Virus genome (UHGV): UHGV-0075096
Length of the DNA stretch: 34,787 nt
Source: a virus
Reading direction: 5' to 3' (one strand)
Shown one piece after another: positions 615 to 34,787 of the stretch. A program made the translations under genes and the position numbers. The notes under the pieces are model-generated. The model made no database searches and was not told the DNA's origin. It saw only the letters and a list, made by a program, of their open reading frames with translations. Positions within the stretch are counted from its first letter, which is position 1, and the number at the start of each line of letters is the position of its first letter.

Positions 615-2198
615 TTAAGGTTTCGGGTCGAAAATATCGGTTCCGAGATGGTTGTAATCCACCTTCTGTAACTGGAAGTTGGTGATGTATATCGGCCCGG
701 CTTTCTTCTCAGATATAAACGGGTATTTGATATTTATTTCCTTCGCTTTAATTCCCGTCCACTGCGAGAAAAAGCCTAAGAAGTCATTGGCCGAGCGGCG
801 GGCTTTAATCACCCGATGCGCTTTATCGTCGCTGGAAATGACCATAAAAGGCACCTGGAAATTTTGCTGATACTTATCATCATGGGCAAGGTATTGCACG
901 TCTTTGCCGCGCTCTTTAAAGGCCAGACCGTGGTCGGAAAAGTAAACCAGCGAGAAGCTGCTGCCGCTGTTGCGTAACTGATCGTACAGCTTGCGCAGTA
1001 AATTGTCTGTTTGCGTCATGGTATAGAGATAGCACGACGTTTCTTTCGATTGCACAAAGGTTTCGTATTTGCCTTGTGTCCGGTCGCAGGCCTGCGGATG
1101 CGAGCCCATCAGGTGTAGAACAATCAGCTGCGGTTGCGAGTGCTCTTGCGCCAGCACTTGAGCGGTCATATCCAGTAACGCTTCGTCTTTCGTGTTTTTA
1201 TCTGCTTCAAAATTACCTTCTTTCAGGAAGTACACTTCATCTGCTCGTTTGGCGATGCTGGCGATGGCGGTATCGTATTCGCCGATTTGGCCCTGGTTGG
1301 AAAACCACCAGGTCTGGAAGCCCGCGCGATTTGCCAGGGTGACAAAGTTATCCTGAAACTGTGGTTTGCCATCGACAACGCGATTGAGCGTTAAGCCAAG
1401 CGATTTCTGCGTGGAGCCACTGGCGGCAATGTAGTCAGCAAATATCAAACCGTTAACGCTGCTGGCAAACGGGGTATTGTCCCAGTGACCGCCAAAGGCA
1501 CCGAGGGCATCGCGACGCGCGCTTTCTCCGATCACCACCACATAGGTCTGATACTTCGGCTTAACGGCAGTGACCGTCCAGGTATCTTTCATTCCGGAAA
1601 GTTTTGCCATCCGTTCTTGCTCTTCAATCACCTCGTTATTATTGACGATGACATCCTTAGCAAAACGAAATACCGGATAGCCAGTATCTTTCAGTTTAAA
1701 TACGCCGCCCCAGGCCAGGTTTTGCACGGGAGCAACAAAAAATGTCGCCACACTGAATACCAGGCACAGGCTGTCGAAGGTATTCCAGCGCGCTTTTTCA
1801 CTCTCTTTTTTTCGCCTGATTGCTATTACGCCGAGCGCAAAAATAAATATGCCGACCAGGTAGCTGTACCACGGAAAAATCGTCAGGATTTCGGTCGACT
1901 CTTCCATATTGGTGGAGTGCAATGCCAGCAATGTATTGAAGTTAGGCGCGCCGTAGGCCTGAGCAAAAGGGAAATAACAAGCCGCCACCAGCGAACTGAT
2001 ACCGACCAGAACTTTTTGTACGCGAGGCAATGTTCGCCATAGCAAAAGCAAAATAGCCGTAAACGCAGCGGTGTAGAGCAAACTGAAGGGGTAACCTAAG
2101 CCGAGGTTAATTAATAGCGACTGTAAAAAGTAGAACGCAGTCCACGGGCTAAATACCCGGCTACGGGTAACAAGCGATTCTTTGAGGGTTAAATTCAT
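615..2198 (-). CDS. opgE: phosphoethanolamine transferase OpgE (YbiP)
   Basis: 527-aa ORF with an N-terminal multi-TM region and a C-terminal sulfatase-like domain; sequence reads as E. coli OpgE/YbiP, the known ompX neighbour. Confidence 0.9.
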   Translation of the reverse strand: MNLTLKESLVTRSRVFSPWTAFYFLQSLLINLGLGYPFSLLYTAAFTAILLLLWRTLPRVQKVLVGISSLVAACYFPFAQAYGAPNFNTLLALHSTNMEESTEILTIFPWYSYLVGIFIFALGVIAIRRKKESEKARWNTFDSLCLVFSVATFFVAPVQNLAWGGVFKLKDTGYPVFRFAKDVIVNNNEVIEEQERMAKLSGMKDTWTVTAVKPKYQTYVVVIGESARRDALGAFGGHWDNTPFASSVNGLIFADYIAASGSTQKSLGLTLNRVVDGKPQFQDNFVTLANRAGFQTWWFSNQGQIGEYDTAIASIAKRADEVYFLKEGNFEADKNTKDEALLDMTAQVLAQEHSQPQLIVLHLMGSHPQACDRTQGKYETFVQSKETSCYLYTMTQTDNLLRKLYDQLRNSGSSFSLVYFSDHGLAFKERGKDVQYLAHDDKYQQNFQVPFMVISSDDKAHRVIKARRSANDFLGFFSQWTGIKAKEINIKYPFISEKKAGPIYITNFQLQKVDYNHLGTDIFDPKP

Positions 2199-2469
2199 AT
2201 GCCACTATCGTAACAAACGCCATGTGCTTACCCTGGCGTCAAGGGTCAATACCTGCAAGAGTGCGTGAAGAGGGGAAAGGGGTCCGCATCCGCGAGCCGC
2301 AATATACGCAGGGCTGCAAGAAGATAGAGCGAGCTGCTGTTCAGGTCAACTACCGACGAACAAATCTTTTGCGAAGGGGATTGCAAATCCGACAAAAAGT
2401 GGGGTTTTTCAGACCAAAACGCGTTGTGCCTGCATAAAAGCAGGAGTGAAGCGGCGTACCGCGACGCCG

Positions 2470-2598
2470 CTATTTATCGGAAGGTTTATCCTGCTGCGGT
2501 TTGTTGTTGACCATATCGCATAACATAGAGAGCAGCATTAACCGTACTTTAAAGGGAGAATGACTAAACACGCGCATACACCTCTTGAACTCATTCAT
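2470..2598 (-). CDS. mntS: small protein MntS (manganese homeostasis; RybA locus)
   Basis: Hand translation of the minus strand gives the 42-aa peptide MNEFKRCMRVFSHSPFKVRLMLLSMLCDMVNNKPQQDKPSDK; it is absent from the ORF track because it is under 60 aa. A hairpin GCGGCGT-N6-ACGCCGC (2451-2470) abuts the stop codon. Confidence 0.85.
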   Translation of the reverse strand: MNEFKRCMRVFSHSPFKVRLMLLSMLCDMVNNKPQQDKPSDK

Positions 2599-2656
2599 AA
2601 GACCTCCTGACTTGCTAATCCCATCGATCCTTGAGGGATGATTGCATTACATACAG

Positions 2657-2674
2657 ATATAGCACAGGCTATAT
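2657..2674. promoter_or_regulatory. MntR-box-like palindrome upstream of mntS
   Basis: Perfect inverted repeat ATATAGC-ACAG-GCTATAT, 59-76 bp upstream of the mntS ATG; it resembles MntR operators (CATAGC...GCTATG type). Confidence 0.5.
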
Positions 2675-2765
2675 TATAAAGCATCAACTATCTGCGAAAA
2701 ACAACAACTTACAGTGTTATCAATAAGTTACGTTGGTTAATGTCTGTGAGTATTCGGCAGTATTT

Positions 2766-3806
2766 CTAAGCTGTCGCGACATTTTTGCGACATTTTAGGG
2801 GGTTAAGTCGCACAGCATCTTCAAGGTGGCTTGGGGCGAAGTGGGCATAACGCATTGTCATGGTTATGTCAGCGTGGCCGAGAATTTTTTGCAAAACCAG
2901 AATGTTTCCGCCGTTCATCATAAAGTGGCTGGCAAATGTATGGCGCAGTACATGGGTAAGCTGGCCGGAGGGGAGTTCAATGCCTGCGCGTTCCAGAGCA
3001 GAGCGGAAAGCGTTGTAGCAGGGCTTGGGGAACAGAGCGCCTTTTGTTTCAGGTAATTCGGACAGAAGTTCATCATCAAGGGGAATTGTTCTGTTGCGCT
3101 TCCCTTTGGTTTTGACGAACGTGACTTTACCCCCGGCGATCTGGGAGCTTTTCAGCGTTGCCGCCTCATTCCACCTTGCGCCGGTAGCAAGGCAGATTTT
3201 GACAACTAATTCTAGGTACTTAACTTTGCTTCGTTTGCATTCCAGTAAAAGCCGATCAATTTCTTCGGTAGTGAGGAAAGCCATTTCGGTTTCATCAGTA
3301 CGATACTGTCTGACGTTTTCCAGTGGGTTGGGTGCTGACCATTCACCAATCCGTTTCAGTTCATTGAACATCGCTAGAAAGTAAGCATGTTCAAGGTTCA
3401 TAGTTTTCGGGGAAACCTTAGATACTCTGTTGGTGCGGGCATAATGCCCATCCAGCCTTTTAGCGCGGTAGGCTGTGAACAACTGGGCATTAAATTCTGT
3501 GGCCAGCGGGAATCCCATGCATTCCGCCGCCCAGGTCATAGCATCTTTACGCTTTTCGCCATTGCTCAAAGCTACGCCGTGGCGTTCATACCACATTGTT
3601 ATCAGATCTATTAAAGTTCGCTTGTCCTTCCCTTCACCCAGCCACGGAGCTGCGTCTACTTTCTGAAGCGTATGGTTTTCGAATGCCAGGGCTTCCCCTT
3701 TCGTGGCAAATTTTTTACGTATACGCTTCCCGTTCTTGCCATTACTGCGGTTGACGGTGTAGAAGTCGGCGATCCATTCGCCTGTAGGAAGTTTACGAAC
3801 GCTCAT
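2766..3806 (-). CDS. int: P2/186-type tyrosine integrase
   Basis: 346 aa; N-terminal region similar to P2 Int (GKNGKRIRKKF...), C-terminal catalytic motifs ATGARWNEA, HVLRHTFASH and the Y of MTMRYAHF; lies 2 bp downstream of cI as in 186. Confidence 0.9.
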   Translation of the reverse strand: MSVRKLPTGEWIADFYTVNRSNGKNGKRIRKKFATKGEALAFENHTLQKVDAAPWLGEGKDKRTLIDLITMWYERHGVALSNGEKRKDAMTWAAECMGFPLATEFNAQLFTAYRAKRLDGHYARTNRVSKVSPKTMNLEHAYFLAMFNELKRIGEWSAPNPLENVRQYRTDETEMAFLTTEEIDRLLLECKRSKVKYLELVVKICLATGARWNEAATLKSSQIAGGKVTFVKTKGKRNRTIPLDDELLSELPETKGALFPKPCYNAFRSALERAGIELPSGQLTHVLRHTFASHFMMNGGNILVLQKILGHADITMTMRYAHFAPSHLEDAVRLNPLKCRKNVATA

Positions 3807-3807
3807 T

Positions 3808-4425
3808 TTATTTTATCGTCAGAACAACGCGGCCTATGATTTTTATGTCGTCAATTCCGCAATCAAATGCCATACCAACACCGCTAACTCTGACTTTTCG
3901 TACCGGAATCCGTGTAAGAGTGCGGACGCTTGTTTTTCCTTCAACTTCAACCAACCAATCATCGTCATAAACTTCAGAATAAGACTGGTCAACAATGTAC
4001 TGAATAAGGCCATCCAGAACACAAATCGGTTGTTGCGGTAAGGGCTTGCCAGGCAGGAAGATGACTTTATCAAGCATAAGTGTGCCAGCGTCATAGAGTT
4101 GGCCATCAACAATCTTGCTGCGCGGCATTTTGAGTATGTCTAATTCATCATCATTAAATTTACGTCCCTGTCCTGTTGCCAGCCACTCCAGATTAGCGCC
4201 TGTTTCGGCTACGCATTTCACGACAATATCTGCCGGGAAAACTCCACGCTTGTAGCGTGAAGAAAGAGAACTGGCTGCCATGTCCAGATGTTCCGCGAGC
4301 TGTAACTTCTGCGTAAATCCGTAAGCCTCGATCACCCTGTCAAGAATCGGTGTGCTATCTACGTTTAGGTCGATTTTAAATGTGCTCATAGCGAATCCAT
4401 AAGTCTCGATTCGAGAAATTGCCAT
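3808..4425 (-). CDS. 186-type CI immunity repressor
   Basis: About 205 aa with an N-terminal HTH-like segment (EAYGFTQKLQLAEHLDMAASSLSSRYKRG) in the position and orientation of 186 cI, co-directional with int. Start is uncertain: ATG at 4425 chosen, alternatives GTG 4431 and ATG 4389. Confidence 0.7.
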   Translation of the reverse strand: MAISRIETYGFAMSTFKIDLNVDSTPILDRVIEAYGFTQKLQLAEHLDMAASSLSSRYKRGVFPADIVVKCVAETGANLEWLATGQGRKFNDDELDILKMPRSKIVDGQLYDAGTLMLDKVIFLPGKPLPQQPICVLDGLIQYIVDQSYSEVYDDDWLVEVEGKTSVRTLTRIPVRKVRVSGVGMAFDCGIDDIKIIGRVVLTIK

Positions 4426-4524
4426 TGACACTTCTCGAAACGCGAATTAATCTGGCTCCATATTTCGAATGTTGCCTTATATAACCCTGTATTGCCGTAC
4501 AGGTTAACTTGTGGAGTTTGCCTT
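4426..4524. promoter_or_regulatory. lysis-lysogeny switch region between divergent cI and apl starts
   Basis: 99-bp gap between the divergently oriented cI and apl start codons; in 186/P2 the lytic and lysogenic promoters and operators lie here. Individual -35/-10 elements were not resolved. Confidence 0.45.
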
Positions 4525-4746
4525 ATGCGTCCGAACATTACAATCATCATCCCAGAACCATACCTGCCTTTAGACGAGTATTGCCGCCGTACTGGCACCA
4601 ACAAAGAAACCGCCAGGAACCTGATCGAATACGGAAAATTACCTATTAAGCCGAAGGGTAAGCAGAAGAAAGGCCTGGTCGAAGTCAACATGGCCGCGCT
4701 CACTATTCAGGCTTTAAGTGAATGTGACATTTCGCTTAACGCGTAA
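4525..4746 (+). CDS. Apl/Cox-like excisionase and switch regulator
   Basis: 73-aa basic protein (MRPNITIIIPEPYLPLDEYCRRTG...) and first gene of the rightward early operon opposite cI, as 186 apl / P2 cox; GTGGAG RBS 8 nt upstream of the ATG at 4525. Confidence 0.65.
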   Translation: MRPNITIIIPEPYLPLDEYCRRTGTNKETARNLIEYGKLPIKPKGKQKKGLVEVNMAALTIQALSECDISLNA

Positions 4747-9909: not shown

Positions 9910-10116
9910 ATGGATCTTTTGGAGGCGTCGGCACAGCTGGAACGCATTGAGTTATTGGCCAAAATTGCCCATGTTTACGAAAGTAACCAGAGAGAAAAAA
10001 CAATCGCTTTGGCCTGGATTGGAGAGCTTGCGGGAGAGGTTCGCGAAATGGTTAAAAAGGAAGGGCAACGCCCCCAGAATGGGGGCATTTCAGGCGGCGG
10101 GAGTCGCTTTCAGTAG
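9910..10116 (+). CDS. small SOS-regulated protein, candidate antirepressor (positional analogue of 186 Tum)
   Basis: 68-aa ORF (MDLLEASAQLERIELLAKIAHVYESNQREK...) 23 bp downstream of the LexA-like box and after gene A, where 186 carries LexA-controlled tum. Function inferred from context only. Confidence 0.4.
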   Translation: MDLLEASAQLERIELLAKIAHVYESNQREKTIALAWIGELAGEVREMVKKEGQRPQNGGISGGGSRFQ

Positions 10117-10359
10117 GTCTAATGCCATCTGGCGCTGATCGGGTGAAAGTGCATTCAGTATTTTTTGCACCATCGCATCACCCGTTTTAGCGCTGGGGCT
10201 GAGAGTGTGGGAGAACGTCAGATTCATAACAAACGTGTGGCCACACTCAACATCTGAACAGGCGCAGTAAATATCCGCAATTTGCCGGTGCTTCCTGTTC
10301 GTTTTACGAATAACAGCCTTTGAGCCGCATTCCGGGCATTCGATTTTCAGAACTCGCAT
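10090..10359 (-). CDS. ogr: Ogr/Delta-family zinc-finger late transcription activator
   Basis: From the internal ATG: MRVLKIECPECGSKAVIRKTNRKHRQIADIYCACSDVEC... has the exact C-x2-C-x22-C-x4-C spacing of P2 Ogr / 186 B. Confidence 0.8.
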   Translation of the reverse strand: MRVLKIECPECGSKAVIRKTNRKHRQIADIYCACSDVECGHTFVMNLTFSHTLSPSAKTGDAMVQKILNALSPDQRQMALDLLKATPAA

Positions 10360-10409
10360 ATTCCATGCTCCAGCTGTTAAATGATGCCTGGATTTTAGCC
10401 TGTTTCGCC

Positions 10410-11471
10410 TCATGCCGCACCCTTATCCGTTGATTCTGTGTAACTTAAATCAAAGTTAAGGTGTAGCCTTTCCGGTATTTCGGGATCATTGTTAACGGCC
10501 AGCATAAAACGGCGCTGGATGGGGGCAATTTCGCTTTTCTTGTAAATGCGTTCAGCCTTTTCAACATCCCCCAGTCCGGCAGTGTTCTGCGGGACAATAC
10601 CGGCGAGGCCAGCAGGGAAACGGTGAGCGTTCAGAATGTCCTGGGCGCTGATGTTCTTGATGTTGGCAAATTCATCCTTTGCGGAAATATCCCCCATTTC
10701 AATGAATTTGATGGCGTCGCCGTCTCCACCGGGAATGTTTACAAGGATGGTGGAGAAGTTACCGATCCCTTTGCTGTCACGCAGCTGCTGTTCAATTTCT
10801 TCCTCCATTTCGTCCGTCATGCTGGGATCGCGGGTATAAAGAATACCGCCTGTGTGCGCACCATTGTGGTAATAGCGGCGTCGGAAAATGACCGCTTCAC
10901 TGTTAAGTAACGCGGAATGCACACCGCCTATGTAGTCCGGCAGCCCGTAGATATGCTGTTGCGGGTCATACATTTTGATGAAGATAATATCTTCTTCTGG
11001 CCATACCTGCGGTTCCCCTTCCTGTAACACCACGTAGTCACCAGGCTTATCCAGGGCGTTATCTCTGACTTTGCGGCGGCGAATATACAGACCGGGCAAG
11101 GGTTCAAGTGCGATCACGTCACCCCAGCCGTTACGAATTTTGGCAATCGCAATATCCCCAAAGGTTATATAGTCAAACGCTGCCGCTTCCAGCTGGTCGT
11201 GAATAAGCCCGCCCCCCTGGTAGTCTGAAACAATCATGTTTTTACGGGCGTGAATGATGCCGCCGTGCTGACCGTTAAGATTAATCAGTTGCGCGAGTGC
11301 CAGCCGGTCAATCGGCTGGGTGAAGTGATCGGCGGCATTGTCGTACCAGATATCACGGTAATCTGTGCCGGTAGTCAGAACTGGTTCAGGTTTGCCGAAT
11401 GTGATAATGCTCATCTTTTTTGATTTGTCGCCGCGCTGGTCGCGCTTAACAAAGCGTTTCTTTTTACTCAT
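10410..11471 (-). CDS. portal protein (P2 gpQ homologue)
   Basis: 353 aa, P2 Q-like size and sequence character; start overlaps the end of the terminase gene (11468-11471). Confidence 0.88.
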   Translation of the reverse strand: MSKKKRFVKRDQRGDKSKKMSIITFGKPEPVLTTGTDYRDIWYDNAADHFTQPIDRLALAQLINLNGQHGGIIHARKNMIVSDYQGGGLIHDQLEAAAFDYITFGDIAIAKIRNGWGDVIALEPLPGLYIRRRKVRDNALDKPGDYVVLQEGEPQVWPEEDIIFIKMYDPQQHIYGLPDYIGGVHSALLNSEAVIFRRRYYHNGAHTGGILYTRDPSMTDEMEEEIEQQLRDSKGIGNFSTILVNIPGGDGDAIKFIEMGDISAKDEFANIKNISAQDILNAHRFPAGLAGIVPQNTAGLGDVEKAERIYKKSEIAPIQRRFMLAVNNDPEIPERLHLNFDLSYTESTDKGAA

Positions 11472-30763: not shown

Positions 30764-31480
30764 TTACTTTAAACTGAGTTTAAAATTTTTGAATTTACCA
30801 TACAGGGTATCGCGTACAGAAAAGGAAGGAACCCAATTGAATCCTGTTCGCCATGGGCGAGGACTACCGTGAAAGCATACAACTGAAACATCATCAGGAA
30901 CTTTGCCAGTAGCATAATCTGATGCCAAGTCAGGGTTGTAACCTATCATTTTACGTGTGGCTATATGGCATTTGTAACTAACAACAGATCCGGGAATTAT
31001 ATCTTGCCACAATACAGGTTTCATGACGCTACCCAGAAACCCCTGATCACCCCATTTATCTTCTGTTTGGCATTCATGCATATTTTTTTCGGGGTCAGTC
31101 CAGAACGCATCCCAAACATATTGTTTGATAGACGCAGGAATGAACATAATGGATGAGTTAACCCTGGAAGGGTGGTTAAACTCCCGCAGCATAGTGAACT
31201 CTTTCGCCGCATCAAAGATTTTGATATCACCAGTTATGACAACATCAACGTCAAAATAAAGCAGATCCTTATCACCTATTACCGGATGGTTTGGATTAAA
31301 AAGCTCAATCTTAGACCACCAACCTGGAAGGTTGTGCATTAACGGTGCGGTTTCAACACCAGGGATACTTCCAGCATCAGTTAAGCAAATTGAAGGTATG
31401 CCTTTAAATTGGCTATGCAGCCATTGTGCGTGTTTGGGGGTAAATTCTTTACCGCATTTAAGGACGGATACAATCAGCAT
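30764..31480 (-). CDS. putative GT-A fold glycosyltransferase (GT8-like motifs)
   Basis: 238 aa; DxD-type motif (LLYFDVDVVITGD) and a C-terminal H-x2-G-x2-(K/R)-P-W motif (FHGSPRPW) characteristic of retaining GT8 enzymes; GC visibly lower than the prophage core. Confidence 0.45.
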   Translation of the reverse strand: MLIVSVLKCGKEFTPKHAQWLHSQFKGIPSICLTDAGSIPGVETAPLMHNLPGWWSKIELFNPNHPVIGDKDLLYFDVDVVITGDIKIFDAAKEFTMLREFNHPSRVNSSIMFIPASIKQYVWDAFWTDPEKNMHECQTEDKWGDQGFLGSVMKPVLWQDIIPGSVVSYKCHIATRKMIGYNPDLASDYATGKVPDDVSVVCFHGSPRPWRTGFNWVPSFSVRDTLYGKFKNFKLSLK

Positions 31481-31660
31481 ATGGGAATCCCATTCTTTAG
31501 AGCAATAGTGTGCATTTTTTGAACATCGGCAATACTAAAATAAATAGTCAGGGCATAATTTTCTTAGGTAAGAGTCATGATGCCTCATGCCATTCCTTAC
31601 GTAAAGCTAGGCAGACTCAGCATAATGAGGGGACAAAAAGGGGACGCTGACCACTACAAA

Positions 31661-31689
31661 CAAAAAAGCCACTCCGTCAGAAGTGGCTT
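31661..31689 (-). terminator. rho-independent terminator (minus strand)
   Basis: On the minus strand, AAGCCACT-N8-AGTGGCTT hairpin followed by TTTTTT. Confidence 0.6.
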
Positions 31690-31843
31690 AATTATATGAT
31701 TATAAAGCTAAAATTTGGTGGCCCCTTGGACTTGAACCAGCGCCCGGGCGATTATAAGTCTTATGGTGTAACCTTTTGATATTTATATATAAATTTTATT
31801 TTTATGTGAATTTTAAGGATCTCTAACCGCTTTATTTTTGGCT

Positions 31844-32093: not shown

Positions 32094-32744
32094 TCAGCCA
32101 TTTTTTACCTCACTATTGTTGGGAGAATGTAATTTTACCTCAATAAACTCAACACTTTCTATTTCATTAGTCAATATTATTATGCCTAATGTATCAGCTA
32201 GTTCGTGATCGAAATCGCCATTCTCATCAAGCGCCCAATGTTTCTCAAGATAGATTTGTTCGGGTTCTGGACTATTGGATGCAAATGAGTCACTTCCATA
32301 AAAACCACCATATTTTTTACCGTTTTTTAGTGTTACCAATACCCAGCAGCGTTGTCTGGTTGAGAAGAAGTAGTCCCAAGAGCGCCCTATAGGGTGTGGA
32401 AGAATATTTTTGACTTTTTCCCAGTTACGAATTTTTAGCAATGCAACAGGTAATAGTACAGGTATTACAATTAAAACTAAAAAGTAAAAAATGTAATATA
32501 AAATAGGGTGTTTCAAAAAAATGTCATTTGTTTCAATTAGATAAATTGGTATTAAAAGAAATGAAAAATTTATGCAACTATATGAAACAACGTCAATTAA
32601 AACTTTTGATGTATCCAAATCAATTGATGGGTGAAATAGTCTGTAAACTCTCATGCTGATAAATCCGGGCATAATGAACAGTACAAATAAAAACAATTTC
32701 CCCTTCTCTAAAATGTCCATTTTAATTCCTTTTGCATAAATCAA
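32094..32744 (-). CDS. uncharacterised membrane protein (3 predicted TM helices plus a roughly 100-aa soluble C-terminal domain)
   Basis: 216 aa; hydrophobic segments [26 protein letters not shown] and [20 protein letters not shown]; its ATG overlaps the upstream stop in an ATGA coupling; AT-rich codon usage. Confidence 0.6.
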
Positions 32745-33766
32745 TCATCTTTATTCATCAAATCATGGTGATATCCACAAACACCTCCAAAATCTTGTTC
32801 GTCTTGGGAAAGTGTTGTGCCACATATATAACATTCATTATAGTCAACTTCATAACCACACCACCGACATTTTTGCTCAGCTAGAATAAATGTATCATGG
32901 TTACAGTTAAAACATTCTTCATAAGTCGGTTCATCGCCATCAGGAGGCCAATAAAAAAACTCATCTTCAAAAACCTGCATAAGCAAAGGCGTAAATAAAT
33001 TGATATTCCCGCATGCAACGCACAAATACTTAAAATCGCTTTCAAAATCTTCTACTGTCAGACCTTCTTCTAAACTATCTTGTGAGGCTTTTATAAGTTT
33101 AGAACCACATTTATCGCAGCAACATTCGGGTAAAAATTCCATCATGCCTTCTGGAATACCTGCATACTCCCATGTTGACCTACACTCATATAATTTCGAA
33201 TTATAAAAAGTTTTGTGTTCCAGCATTGTACTCCAGGAACTGCCTAAAACATCTTGTGGAATTTTATCAAGTTCATTTGTTATGAAACTTTCAAGAACTG
33301 GAAATAAATCGGCGACAAAACCAGCAAGCTCGCCGAAAGTGTTTTGAGGATGTAAGTGTTCAAGATGATTTCGGCAATCCTGAAGTTTTTCAATGGCTGG
33401 CCAATCAACTTTTATGTTGAATTTATGAAAGCGCTCCTTTATGCCACAAACATCAATAGTCGATTTTTTAAACTTTCCTTCAGGTTTCCATTCTACCCCA
33501 CCTTTCCCATCGGGGTGGGGAAGCATTTTAGACGGTGGGTTATGTATTAGCACATACGCATGCTCAGGCGTGTCAACAGATTTGGCGATTTTATATTTGA
33601 ATAGTAATAATAAACCAGCGTAAAGATTACGTATGGATGAAAGAGTTCGCAATGAGTTATCAGGTTGTTGGGATAACTGGAAATCTTCAATCCCAAGTTG
33701 TATTGAAGCAATTGCGTTGTCATATAACTTATCCGCATCTAAGGTTAGTGAGGTTGTGTTACTCAT
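32741..33766 (-). CDS. uncharacterised protein with C-terminal multi-CxxC zinc-ribbon-like region
   Basis: 341 aa; C-terminal third contains CCCDKC, CVAC, CFNC, CRWC, CYIC and CGYHH; N-terminal domain contains an R-N-x3-H motif (RNHLEH); AAGGA RBS. Confidence 0.6.
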
Positions 33767-33840
33767 TGTTTGCTCTATCCTTAGTAAATAAAGTTGGATT
33801 ACATATTATGAAAAAAAGTTGGTGCATTCAATCAGTCATT

Positions 33841-34737
33841 TTAAAAGTTTTTCCCTGACCGCGCTAATGCTTTTTCTTCGTTAAAGTAACCAAGTATATA
33901 ATCTCTTATCTCTACACCTAATTTTTCACTTAAGTAAGGGATGTGGTATTCTGAAATATAAAATTGAATGTTGCAATTATCTATGAAATCTTCTTCATAA
34001 AGTTCATGTTTTATGACTGGAGTGTAATTATATCTGTTTTGAAAGATAACATATGGAATATTAAAAATGTGTTCTTCTTTATAGGTTTTATTTTTGAATT
34101 TACTTAACAAAATATCTAACCCGTCAGGATTTGAACTTAGTAAATCTTCAACTTCTTTACGATGTTTTTGTTCAAATAAATCAGTTAAGATATTTCTGTA
34201 GATAGGATTGATAGTACAAAGCGTAGTGGTTTTATCTAAACGATGTAATGGTAAAACTATCTCACCATCCAAAAGTCCCAAGAATGCTTTATTGTGTTCA
34301 TCATCGGTAGATCTTTCCAGTTGTATTGTGCAGTCATTATCTTTCAGCTTTAATAATATGGCTTTGGCAAAATGAGAGTAATCATTGAAACTGATTTTCA
34401 ATAGCTGTATTTTTTTAAGATCATTTCTTCGTTTTTCTTCTTCTTTTTTATCTAATGCTAGTTTGTTCTGTCTGACGATAAGTTTTTCTTTAGTAAATCG
34501 AATGAATAAGTCTACTATACCAAATAGTATGGATGATAGTAATGCACCAAGTGAAAAGCCTATAATTGTTATTAATGTAATAGAAAGTTCATTAGGTATT
34601 TTAAATTGGCCTAGTTTGGGTTCTACTAAAACCCAGCAACCGATGATTGAGCCAGCAATAATTAATAATCTTAGAGAAGAACGGAACGAAACTAAGTTAG
34701 TTAGGTGTGATAAAACGGTAGATAACGGGTCAGTCAT
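33841..34737 (-). CDS. uncharacterised membrane protein (2 N-terminal TM helices, Lys/Glu-rich coiled-coil-like linker, soluble C-terminal domain)
   Basis: 298 aa from the ATG at 34737, which has a strong AGGAGA RBS 7 nt upstream; TM segments LLIIAGSIIGCWVLV and ITLITIIGFSLGALLSSILFGIV; about 33% GC. Confidence 0.6.
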   Translation of the reverse strand: MTDPLSTVLSHLTNLVSFRSSLRLLIIAGSIIGCWVLVEPKLGQFKIPNELSITLITIIGFSLGALLSSILFGIVDLFIRFTKEKLIVRQNKLALDKKEEEKRRNDLKKIQLLKISFNDYSHFAKAILLKLKDNDCTIQLERSTDDEHNKAFLGLLDGEIVLPLHRLDKTTTLCTINPIYRNILTDLFEQKHRKEVEDLLSSNPDGLDILLSKFKNKTYKEEHIFNIPYVIFQNRYNYTPVIKHELYEEDFIDNCNIQFYISEYHIPYLSEKLGVEIRDYILGYFNEEKALARSGKNF

Positions 34738-34787
34738 GTAGGTGTCTCCTGACTTTTGGCTACAAATTATCACATTTTAGAGAAAGT

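Follow-up and report, generated by a model that had tools for sequence, protein, structure and literature searches.

A 186-type prophage between mntS and mntR of Escherichia coli, with its attachment core at the junction of two putative MntR boxes

What draws a temperate phage to the short stretch between two manganese-responsive genes, and what becomes of these genes once it has settled there? Both questions are raised by UHGV virus genome UHGV-0075096, a stretch of 34,787 nucleotides (hereafter the window) in which a 32-kb P2/186-like prophage is placed between the Escherichia coli genes mntS and mntR. The pair has been described as a conserved dyad derived from an ancestral sitA-mntR arrangement (bioRxiv 10.1101/2023.06.02.543501), and mntS has been described as repressed by manganese-bound MntR (PMC4361602). 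In K-12 and in genomes with an empty site, the two genes are adjacent and divergent, about 186 bp apart. The left 2.7 kb of the window are E. coli chromosome and follow the K-12 order ompX-opgE-mntS-mntR-ybiR up to mntS, after which the phage begins:

44-565, plus strand: ompX
615-2198, minus strand: opgE
2470-2598, minus strand: mntS coding sequence, 42 amino acids, intact open reading frame
2679-34787: prophage body, with genes for CII, the GPA replication protein, portal, P2-family capsid and tail

A preliminary description of this DNA had read it as a prophage lying directly upstream of an intact mntS, apparently between that gene and mntR, at a site other than a tRNA gene. Our analysis bears this out. 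The 42-residue mntS product is 100% identical to the RefSeq-annotated MntS of K-12 and of lysogens; the integrase gene does end at 2766, its stop codon occupying 2766-2768; mntR is indeed missing from the window, as judged by tblastn; and ARAGORN finds no tRNA gene in the window, the attachment core lying in the mntS-mntR intergenic region. A search of the window against Rfam returned 0 families, a tRNA-like fragment at about 31714-31759 (see below) being likewise unrecognised.

The junction was located with a 601-nucleotide query matched against 5422 complete E. coli genomes, in which homology to the empty site ends at 2682. Alignment with the uninterrupted K-12 site, a step that the preliminary description had proposed, together with both ends of the related prophages of genomes AHB29 and Combat13F7, defines an 11-bp core, GCTATATTATA, after which come a mismatch at 2679 and three further common bases (AGC). 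In AHB29 and Combat13F7, the related prophage lies exactly between mntS and mntR and has the core at both ends:

2668-2678, plus strand: core of attL, 11 bp, common to attB, attL and attR, found once in the window
attB (K-12): cagGCTATATTATAtagctattg
attL (window): cagGCTATATTATAaagcatcaac
attR (AHB29): gaaGCTATATTATAtagc
attR (Combat13F7): aaaGCTATATTATAtagc

The earlier placement of attL within about 90 bp of the MntR operator was close and can now be refined, as the core overlaps the operator itself by 7 bp. The core that was looked for at the far end of the element is seen next to mntR in AHB29 and Combat13F7; that of the present copy lies beyond the window, which holds the core once (at attL) and no mntR. 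The last 4788 bases of the window are 100% identical in Combat13F7, whose attR core starts 133 bp past the point where the window ends, with the mntR start codon 105 bp beyond the core. Judged from this genome, the window is expected to stop about 133 bp short of attR, so that the element would measure about 32,253 bp from core to core, in agreement with the earlier statement that more than 32 kb separate mntS from mntR.

What, then, is the phage landing on? The MntR-box-like palindrome reported previously at 2657-2674 is intact and is the only exact match to the box pattern in the window. Its assignment holds when checked against a characterised operator, that of K-12 mntH (AAACATAGCAAAGGCTATGTTT), with which it shares 16 of 20 positions; in 30 kb around mntH, nothing but that operator, at 2 mismatches, matches the pattern with 2 mismatches or fewer. 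An alignment of the DNA between mntS and mntR from E. coli, Salmonella, Citrobacter, Kluyvera, an Enterobacter-like genome, Klebsiella and Kosakonia shows in all seven genera a near-invariant block of about 65 bp, which reads CACAAAAAATTAACGTTTTAGCAATAGCTATAnAATATAGCCTGTGCTATATCTGTATGTAATGC on the mntS-sense strand. The block holds two tandem palindromes 1 bp apart, both near-invariant throughout; in the window, phage DNA stands in place of the second:

2657-2674: MntR box 1, ATATAGC-ACAG-GCTATAT (ATATAGCACAGGCTATAT), intact, zero mismatches; ATATAGC-CTGT-GCTATAT on the mntS-sense strand
Native box 2, mntS-sense strand: TTTTAGC-AATA-GCTATAT
2676-2693: phage-derived pseudo-box, ATAAAGC-ATCA-ACTATCT, 3 mismatches, in place of the native box 2

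The empty K-12 site thus has two matches to the pattern (0 mismatches for box 1 and 2 for box 2, the same score as the mntH operator), against 0.01 expected by chance. The mntS boxes have the inverted-repeat design of the mntH operator, ATAGC-N4-GCTAT, and differ from it in being two, in tandem. By match, conservation and regulated gene, box 1 holds as an MntR operator, with MntR binding putative for both boxes.

The core takes in the final 3 bp of box 2, the single base pair between the boxes and the left half-site of box 1. Read on the plus strand of the window, the native site is GCTATAT-T-ATATAGC, a perfect 15-bp palindrome that attP matches at 14 of 15 positions. We infer that strands are exchanged in an overlap of about 7 bp, TATTATA (2672-2678), flanked by inverted core sites, which would be AGGCTA and TAGCTA in the host and AAGCTA and AAGCAT in the phage. 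Integration leaves box 1 with mntS and sends box 2, a conserved TTAACG hexamer and everything further upstream to the attR side.

The pseudo-box that replaces box 2 is kept in all attL copies seen. We considered it as an operator mimic and find the idea suggestive only, as the match partly follows from the similarity of attP to attB and could be due to chance. The distal half-site agrees at 5 of 7 positions (about 2% by chance, in our own estimate), and on the attR side there is no mimicry.

The recombinase next to the core is of the phage 186 type, and the module around it is laid out as in that phage:

2766-3806, minus strand: tyrosine integrase, 346 amino acids (PF24624 and PF00589)
3808-4431, minus strand: CI-type immunity repressor (PF07022 and PF16452)
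4525-4746, plus strand: open reading frame of 73 amino acids in the Apl/Cox position, divergent from cI
2679-2800: P' arm of the attachment site, with arm-type repeats inside the 3' end of int
2776-2781 and 2787-2792: P' arm direct repeats, (t)GCGACA, 11 bp apart

The gene adjoins the end of the element, 87 bp from the core, and its product has a catalytic tyrosine-recombinase domain (PF00589, E = 6.7e-25). It is 62% identical to 186 Int over 337 amino acids, which is full length, and keeps the blocks ATGARW, HVLRHTFASHF and MRYAHF. The cI gene sits 1 nucleotide upstream of int in a cI-int operon, as in phage 186; its product is 43% identical to 186 CI, and the order cI-int-attP, with int reading towards attP, is also that of 186. 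Arm-type repeats are present on both sides of the core. The (T)GCGACA pair of the P' arm lies at +98 and +109 from the core in the window, and the P arm of Combat13F7 carries a TTGCGACA pair, likewise 11 bp apart, at -80 and -69 from its attR core. The paired repeats resemble those of 186, CGACATTT being similar to the 186 arm consensus YAYCGCCAYTY.

We then asked how widely this site is used. Among the 5422 complete E. coli genomes, mntS and mntR are contiguous in 5392 and split in 30 (0.55%). All 30 split sites carry an integrase of this family next to mntS, always co-directional with it: the window type in 23 (95-99.6% nucleotide identity) and a diverged allele in the other 7 (87% identical in the two measured). 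A further 16 attL junctions were found in IMG/VR, 5 of them with Citrobacter-type mntS flanks, and the junction is the same to the base in the 30 genomes and the 16 contigs, Citrobacter included. Cargo and host lineage both vary from one of the 30 lysogens to another, a pattern that suggests repeated recent integrations.

The core is identical in Citrobacter and has 1-2 differences in Salmonella, Klebsiella, Kluyvera, Kosakonia and the Enterobacter-like sequences; a core match in E. coli and Citrobacter only fits the hosts observed. When integrase relatives in other species were scanned (one genome per species, best 80 matches, 50-93% identity), no mntS, mntR, MntR box or tRNA was found within 3 kb. 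Since relatives from other genera (50-76% identity) lack these neighbours, specificity for mntS-mntR appears to be limited to this integrase sub-lineage, and relatives at 70-76% would use other sites.

A few contigs and lysogens call for separate mention. In the 2 of the 7 genomes with the diverged allele that we inspected (L086, 2900-5021; L093, 3040-5147), a 582-nucleotide gene stands between a duplicated int 3' end with its arm repeats and the full int; it seems to exemplify the integrase-to-att cargo hotspot of PMC13586616. IMG/VR contig L097 (1-41) has sequence other than mntS to the left of the core and may represent attP or a secondary site, its 30-nucleotide non-host flank having no match in the E. 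coli genomes. Contig L006 (4038-4128), whose integrase is 93% identical, ends exactly at the core boundary. Combat13F7 (L003, 828-1880 and 37164-46099) carries at mntS-mntR a heavily deleted prophage remnant with cargo 100% identical to that of the window, and, about 35 kb from it, has a second phage integrase that adjoins rcdA.

Phage 186 itself integrates in the 3' end of a tRNA-Ile gene (ileY), with which it shares 36 bp. The window phage differs from it in using an intergenic promoter/operator site with 11 bp shared, in its Apl-position gene, which is unrelated in sequence, and in its ESSI2-like structural genes; the ileY-type attP is present only as a fossil:

31659-31759, plus strand: fossil left half of a 186/ileY-type attP, with terminator homologue, integration host factor (IHF) region and truncated tRNA-Ile
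31666-31689, minus strand: homologue of the lysogenic-operon terminator, a strong hairpin (terminator scan)
About 31714-31759: truncated tRNA-Ile relic, away from the present junction

This segment is 79.6% identical over 103 nucleotides, in the same orientation, to 186 positions 20930-21030, which hold the predicted lysogenic-operon terminator, the IHF footprint and the truncated tRNA-Ile of the attP core. The homology breaks off precisely where the 186 core ends, and the fossil lies 3.2 kb inside the element. This suggests that 31659-31759 is half of a former ileY-type attP and that the int-attP module was swapped in an ancestor.

The rest of the phage points elsewhere. Replication protein (PF05840), portal (PF04860) and capsid (PF05125) families were found in the window, and Peduoviridae-type replication A, portal, terminase, scaffold and capsid genes follow the conserved order (Pfam; RefSeq annotation of AHB29). 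The 20-kb region from replication to tail is 96.2% identical in nucleotide sequence to Escherichia phage ESSI2_ev015 and 76% to Cronobacter phage ESSI-2. The structural region is shared with these phages, whereas the int-cI region and the integration specificity differ. For the int-cI region, no near match was found among deposited phages; the best protein match to the integrase, at 76%, is in a Salmonella phage contig (S.Kent), which has cargo after int and no matching core.

Like P2, WPhi, PhiD145 and the prophages of Nilsson et al. 2011 (PMC3448106), the element is of the Peduoviridae type, sits at a non-tRNA intergenic site and combines a short core with arm sites made of direct repeats to its left and right. 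In its text, that paper describes P2-type integrases as tending towards intergenic sites and those of the 186 type towards tRNA genes; by contrast with this tendency, as far as the text gives it, the window has a 186-type integrase at an intergenic site. The same text, Figure 5 apart, mentions none of mntS, mntR, rybA, ybiP and ybiR, and the text of Bobay 2013 does not mention the mntS-mntR locus. In the literature searched, we found nothing relevant on mntS/mntR as a prophage attachment site, although supplements to surveys may list it. The site is apparently undescribed.

Considering all the above results, we think it likely that the locus reflects 186-type site-specific integration at the junction of the MntR boxes, with position effects that can be predicted. 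A temperate phage composed of an ESSI2-like structural module and a 186-type cI-int module has integrated by tyrosine-integrase recombination into the divergent mntS-mntR control region, at the core shared by phage and host; the (A/T)RGCTA-like sites flanking the TATTATA overlap would coincide with MntR half-sites. After integration, mntS would be left with box 1 and, probably, with its own core promoter (-10 at 2646-2651, TGTAAT; start close to 2640), and box 2, TTAACG and the mntR promoter would move about 32 kb off with mntR. As MntR acts in trans, mntS should for the most part remain repressible by manganese. Two position effects seem likely, namely the loss of the upstream operator (box 2) from mntS and the entry of the lysogenic cI-int transcript into mntS. 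What the data show directly is that the phage has integrated, at which core and with which arm repeats, and how the site is distributed; the overlap with its core sites, the choice of the mntS promoter and the read-through are deduced. The mechanism is standard for the P2/186 family, that is, routine prophage biology at a rare site.

Several observations weigh against this account. The attR of the present copy lies outside the window and is placed from relatives only. No -35-like hexamer accompanies TGTAAT, and a promoter predicted for mntS in PMC3946193 would be split by the insertion, its -35 being lost to attR. Finally, the 73-residue protein in the Apl position has no Pfam match and no similarity to 186 Apl.

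The effect of the insertion on mntS depends in the first place on where its promoter lies, for which we see two options:

2437-2471, minus strand: hairpin and T-run at the mntS 3' end, likely terminator region
2646-2651, minus strand: TGTAAT, likely mntS -10, retained at attL
2673-2678, minus strand: TATAAT inside the core, alternative -10 of TTAACG-N-TATAAT, whose -35 is on the attR side

The rybA/mntS transcript is 205 nucleotides long and contains the whole open reading frame (Martin et al., PMC4361602). The minus strand of 2420-2475 folds at -21.9 kcal/mol (z = -2.9), and a 205-nucleotide transcript ending at the hairpin (2471-2437) would start near 2639-2641. This fits TGTAAT, which is conserved in all seven genera aligned (as TATAAT in Citrobacter); box 1 would then lie at about -16 to -33 and the core at -27 to -37. 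The alternative is the sequence-predicted promoter TTAACG-16-TATAAT listed for mntS by Shimada et al. (PMC3946193). With or without the insertion, a strict consensus scan of the site finds no mntS promoter on the minus strand and does not distinguish the two options. We lean towards TGTAAT, with some reserve, in which case core promoter and operator would both be preserved.

The second position effect concerns transcription arriving from the phage. Both int and mntS are on the minus strand, and the 87 bp that separate int from the core hold no predicted terminator; on the minus strand of 2350-2900 as a whole, the scan predicts none, hence none between int and mntS, and the 101 nucleotides that lead from the int stop up to the core are no more stably folded than shuffled sequence (z = +0.84). 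The annotation of phage 186 places its predicted lysogenic-operon terminator past attP, so that integration parts the operon from its terminator. The same holds here: the homologue lies far away at 31666-31689, so the integrated cI-int transcript would meet no predicted stop before the mntS terminator. Read-through from cI-int into mntS, which the preliminary description had raised together with a possible disturbance of mntS regulation, is therefore plausible; on structural grounds, so is the disturbance, since box 2 and all that lies upstream of it are taken from mntS. Since overproduction of MntS causes manganese sensitivity (PMC4361602), a phenotype of the lysogen is conceivable, and we infer such a chain from read-through to manganese as a possible outcome.

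The insertion may instead be neutral for regulation, with promoters and operator kept, MntR supplied in trans and read-through negligible or blocked by bound MntR. The insertion leaves box 1 and the conserved TGTAAT whole at attL, a conserved candidate mntR promoter between the core and mntR (TTGTAC-16-TACAAT) stays with mntR, and many unrelated lysogenic isolates have an mntS without obvious damage. We hold this reading to be a real possibility but a somewhat doubtful one: box 2, as conserved as box 1, is lost from mntS, and the absence of a predicted terminator downstream of int speaks against negligible read-through. As to the occupancy of 0.55%, it is compatible with a cost and does not demonstrate one.

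Two further elements were noted on the plus strand at this end. A second predicted promoter, ATTACA-18-TATATT (2646-2675), now faces the antisense strand of int; two such promoter-like sites occur in the scanned region, against 0.6 expected by chance. A weak terminator-like hairpin and T-run lies at the int stop codon (2755-2786) and could stop transcription entering the prophage from the 2646-2675 site.

If the true mntS promoter were TTAACG-N15/16-TATAAT, the insertion would strip it of its -35, and a complete promoter with box 2 would stand at attR, facing the P arm and the cargo genes on the minus strand, where it would drive the phage cargo in a manganese-responsive manner. The cargo differs between relatives, with an AAA ATPase and a serine O-acetyltransferase at this position in AHB29:

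32094-34773, minus strand: low-GC cargo block near attR, with a DUF6338 protein, a PDC-S64-like protein and a 310-residue protein

The 341-residue cargo protein matches the candidate defence family PDC-S64 of PADLOC (E = 2.5e-47), and the 310-residue protein has no family assigned. The block is 100% identical in Combat13F7 and is flanked by the fossil terminator and the present attR. Circularisation of the phage would place it across attP, downstream of cI-int, and in the prophage the DNA upstream of it is that of the host.

Several features are in keeping with such a capture of the promoter. TTAACG-16-TATAAT is the promoter listed in PMC3946193, and TTAACG is invariant in the seven genera; the cargo genes adjoining attR all point into the element, with mntR behind them, and run up to the strong terminator at 31666-31689; and no promoter-like site in the cargo direction was found in the P arm. 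At the corresponding -35 position upstream of mntS, the phage DNA offers only TTTTCG or TTTCGC. On the other hand, with a start near 2666 the transcript would either be about 230 nucleotides long, and not 205 as reported, or have its 3' end within the terminator hairpin. Moreover, the Salmonella hexamer is TAAAAC, without the key final T, the spacer counted here is short (15 bp), the listed entry is a sequence prediction rather than a mapped start, and the conservation of TTAACG may instead reflect a back-to-back mntR promoter or box 2. We therefore regard a split promoter as unlikely.

One might also suppose that the prophage is defective or cryptic and unable to excise, the split of mntS from mntR being fixed in its lineage. 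The deleted remnant in Combat13F7, with its identical cargo, and the Apl-position gene, in which no excisionase similarity is recognisable, would suit this view. Yet the window copy is complete in its lysogeny, replication, head and tail open reading frames and is 96% identical over 20 kb to the deposited ESSI2_ev015, and the varied cargo and hosts of the 30 lysogens argue for repeated recent integrations; we thus consider a defective element improbable.

Illegitimate or homologous recombination, or integration at a secondary site, has nothing specific in its favour beyond a core that is short (11 bp) and AT-rich, and is extremely improbable given a base-exact junction in 30 E. coli genomes and 16 IMG/VR contigs, Citrobacter included, a core duplicated at both ends and a constant orientation.

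Two open reading frames of the prophage body, both on the minus strand, deserve a brief comment. The first (30764-31480, 238 amino acids) stands between the genes on the tail/ogr side and the fossil attP and matches nothing in Pfam or PADLOC. The second (10090-10413, 107 amino acids), next to the portal gene, has a relative in AHB29 annotated as an Ogr/Delta-like zinc-finger protein; its PADLOC match to a methyl-directed restriction enzyme (E = 0.0014 only) is probably spurious.

What may this integration mean beyond the locus itself? A far-reaching version of our account, which we regard as rather improbable, would be that integration rewires manganese-responsive transcription on both sides, and that the operator pair, kept by selection for MntR, acts as a landing pad. 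At attL, the constitutive lysogenic transcript of cI-int would enter mntS, and the pseudo-box would mimic the lost box 2 only partly; MntS would be made when expected to be off, leading to manganese retention or sensitivity, a form of lysogenic conversion by position effect. At attR, expression of the candidate defence cargo, which faces inward, would come under box 2 and TTAACG-N-TATAAT and so depend on manganese. As a landing pad, the MntR operator pair would serve this integrase family as tRNA genes serve other phages.

The site would gain in interest only if manganese homeostasis or cargo expression turned out to be subject to real position effects. Irrespective of these, the prophage splits a gene pair that is conserved across Enterobacteriaceae and brings its cI-int operon head-to-tail with mntS. 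The identity of the core where lysogens occur (E. coli and Citrobacter), against 1-2 differences in the other genera, provides a concrete host-range rule. Likewise, an 11-bp core at the junction of two putative MntR operators adds a defined non-tRNA attachment site to those of the 186-type integrases.

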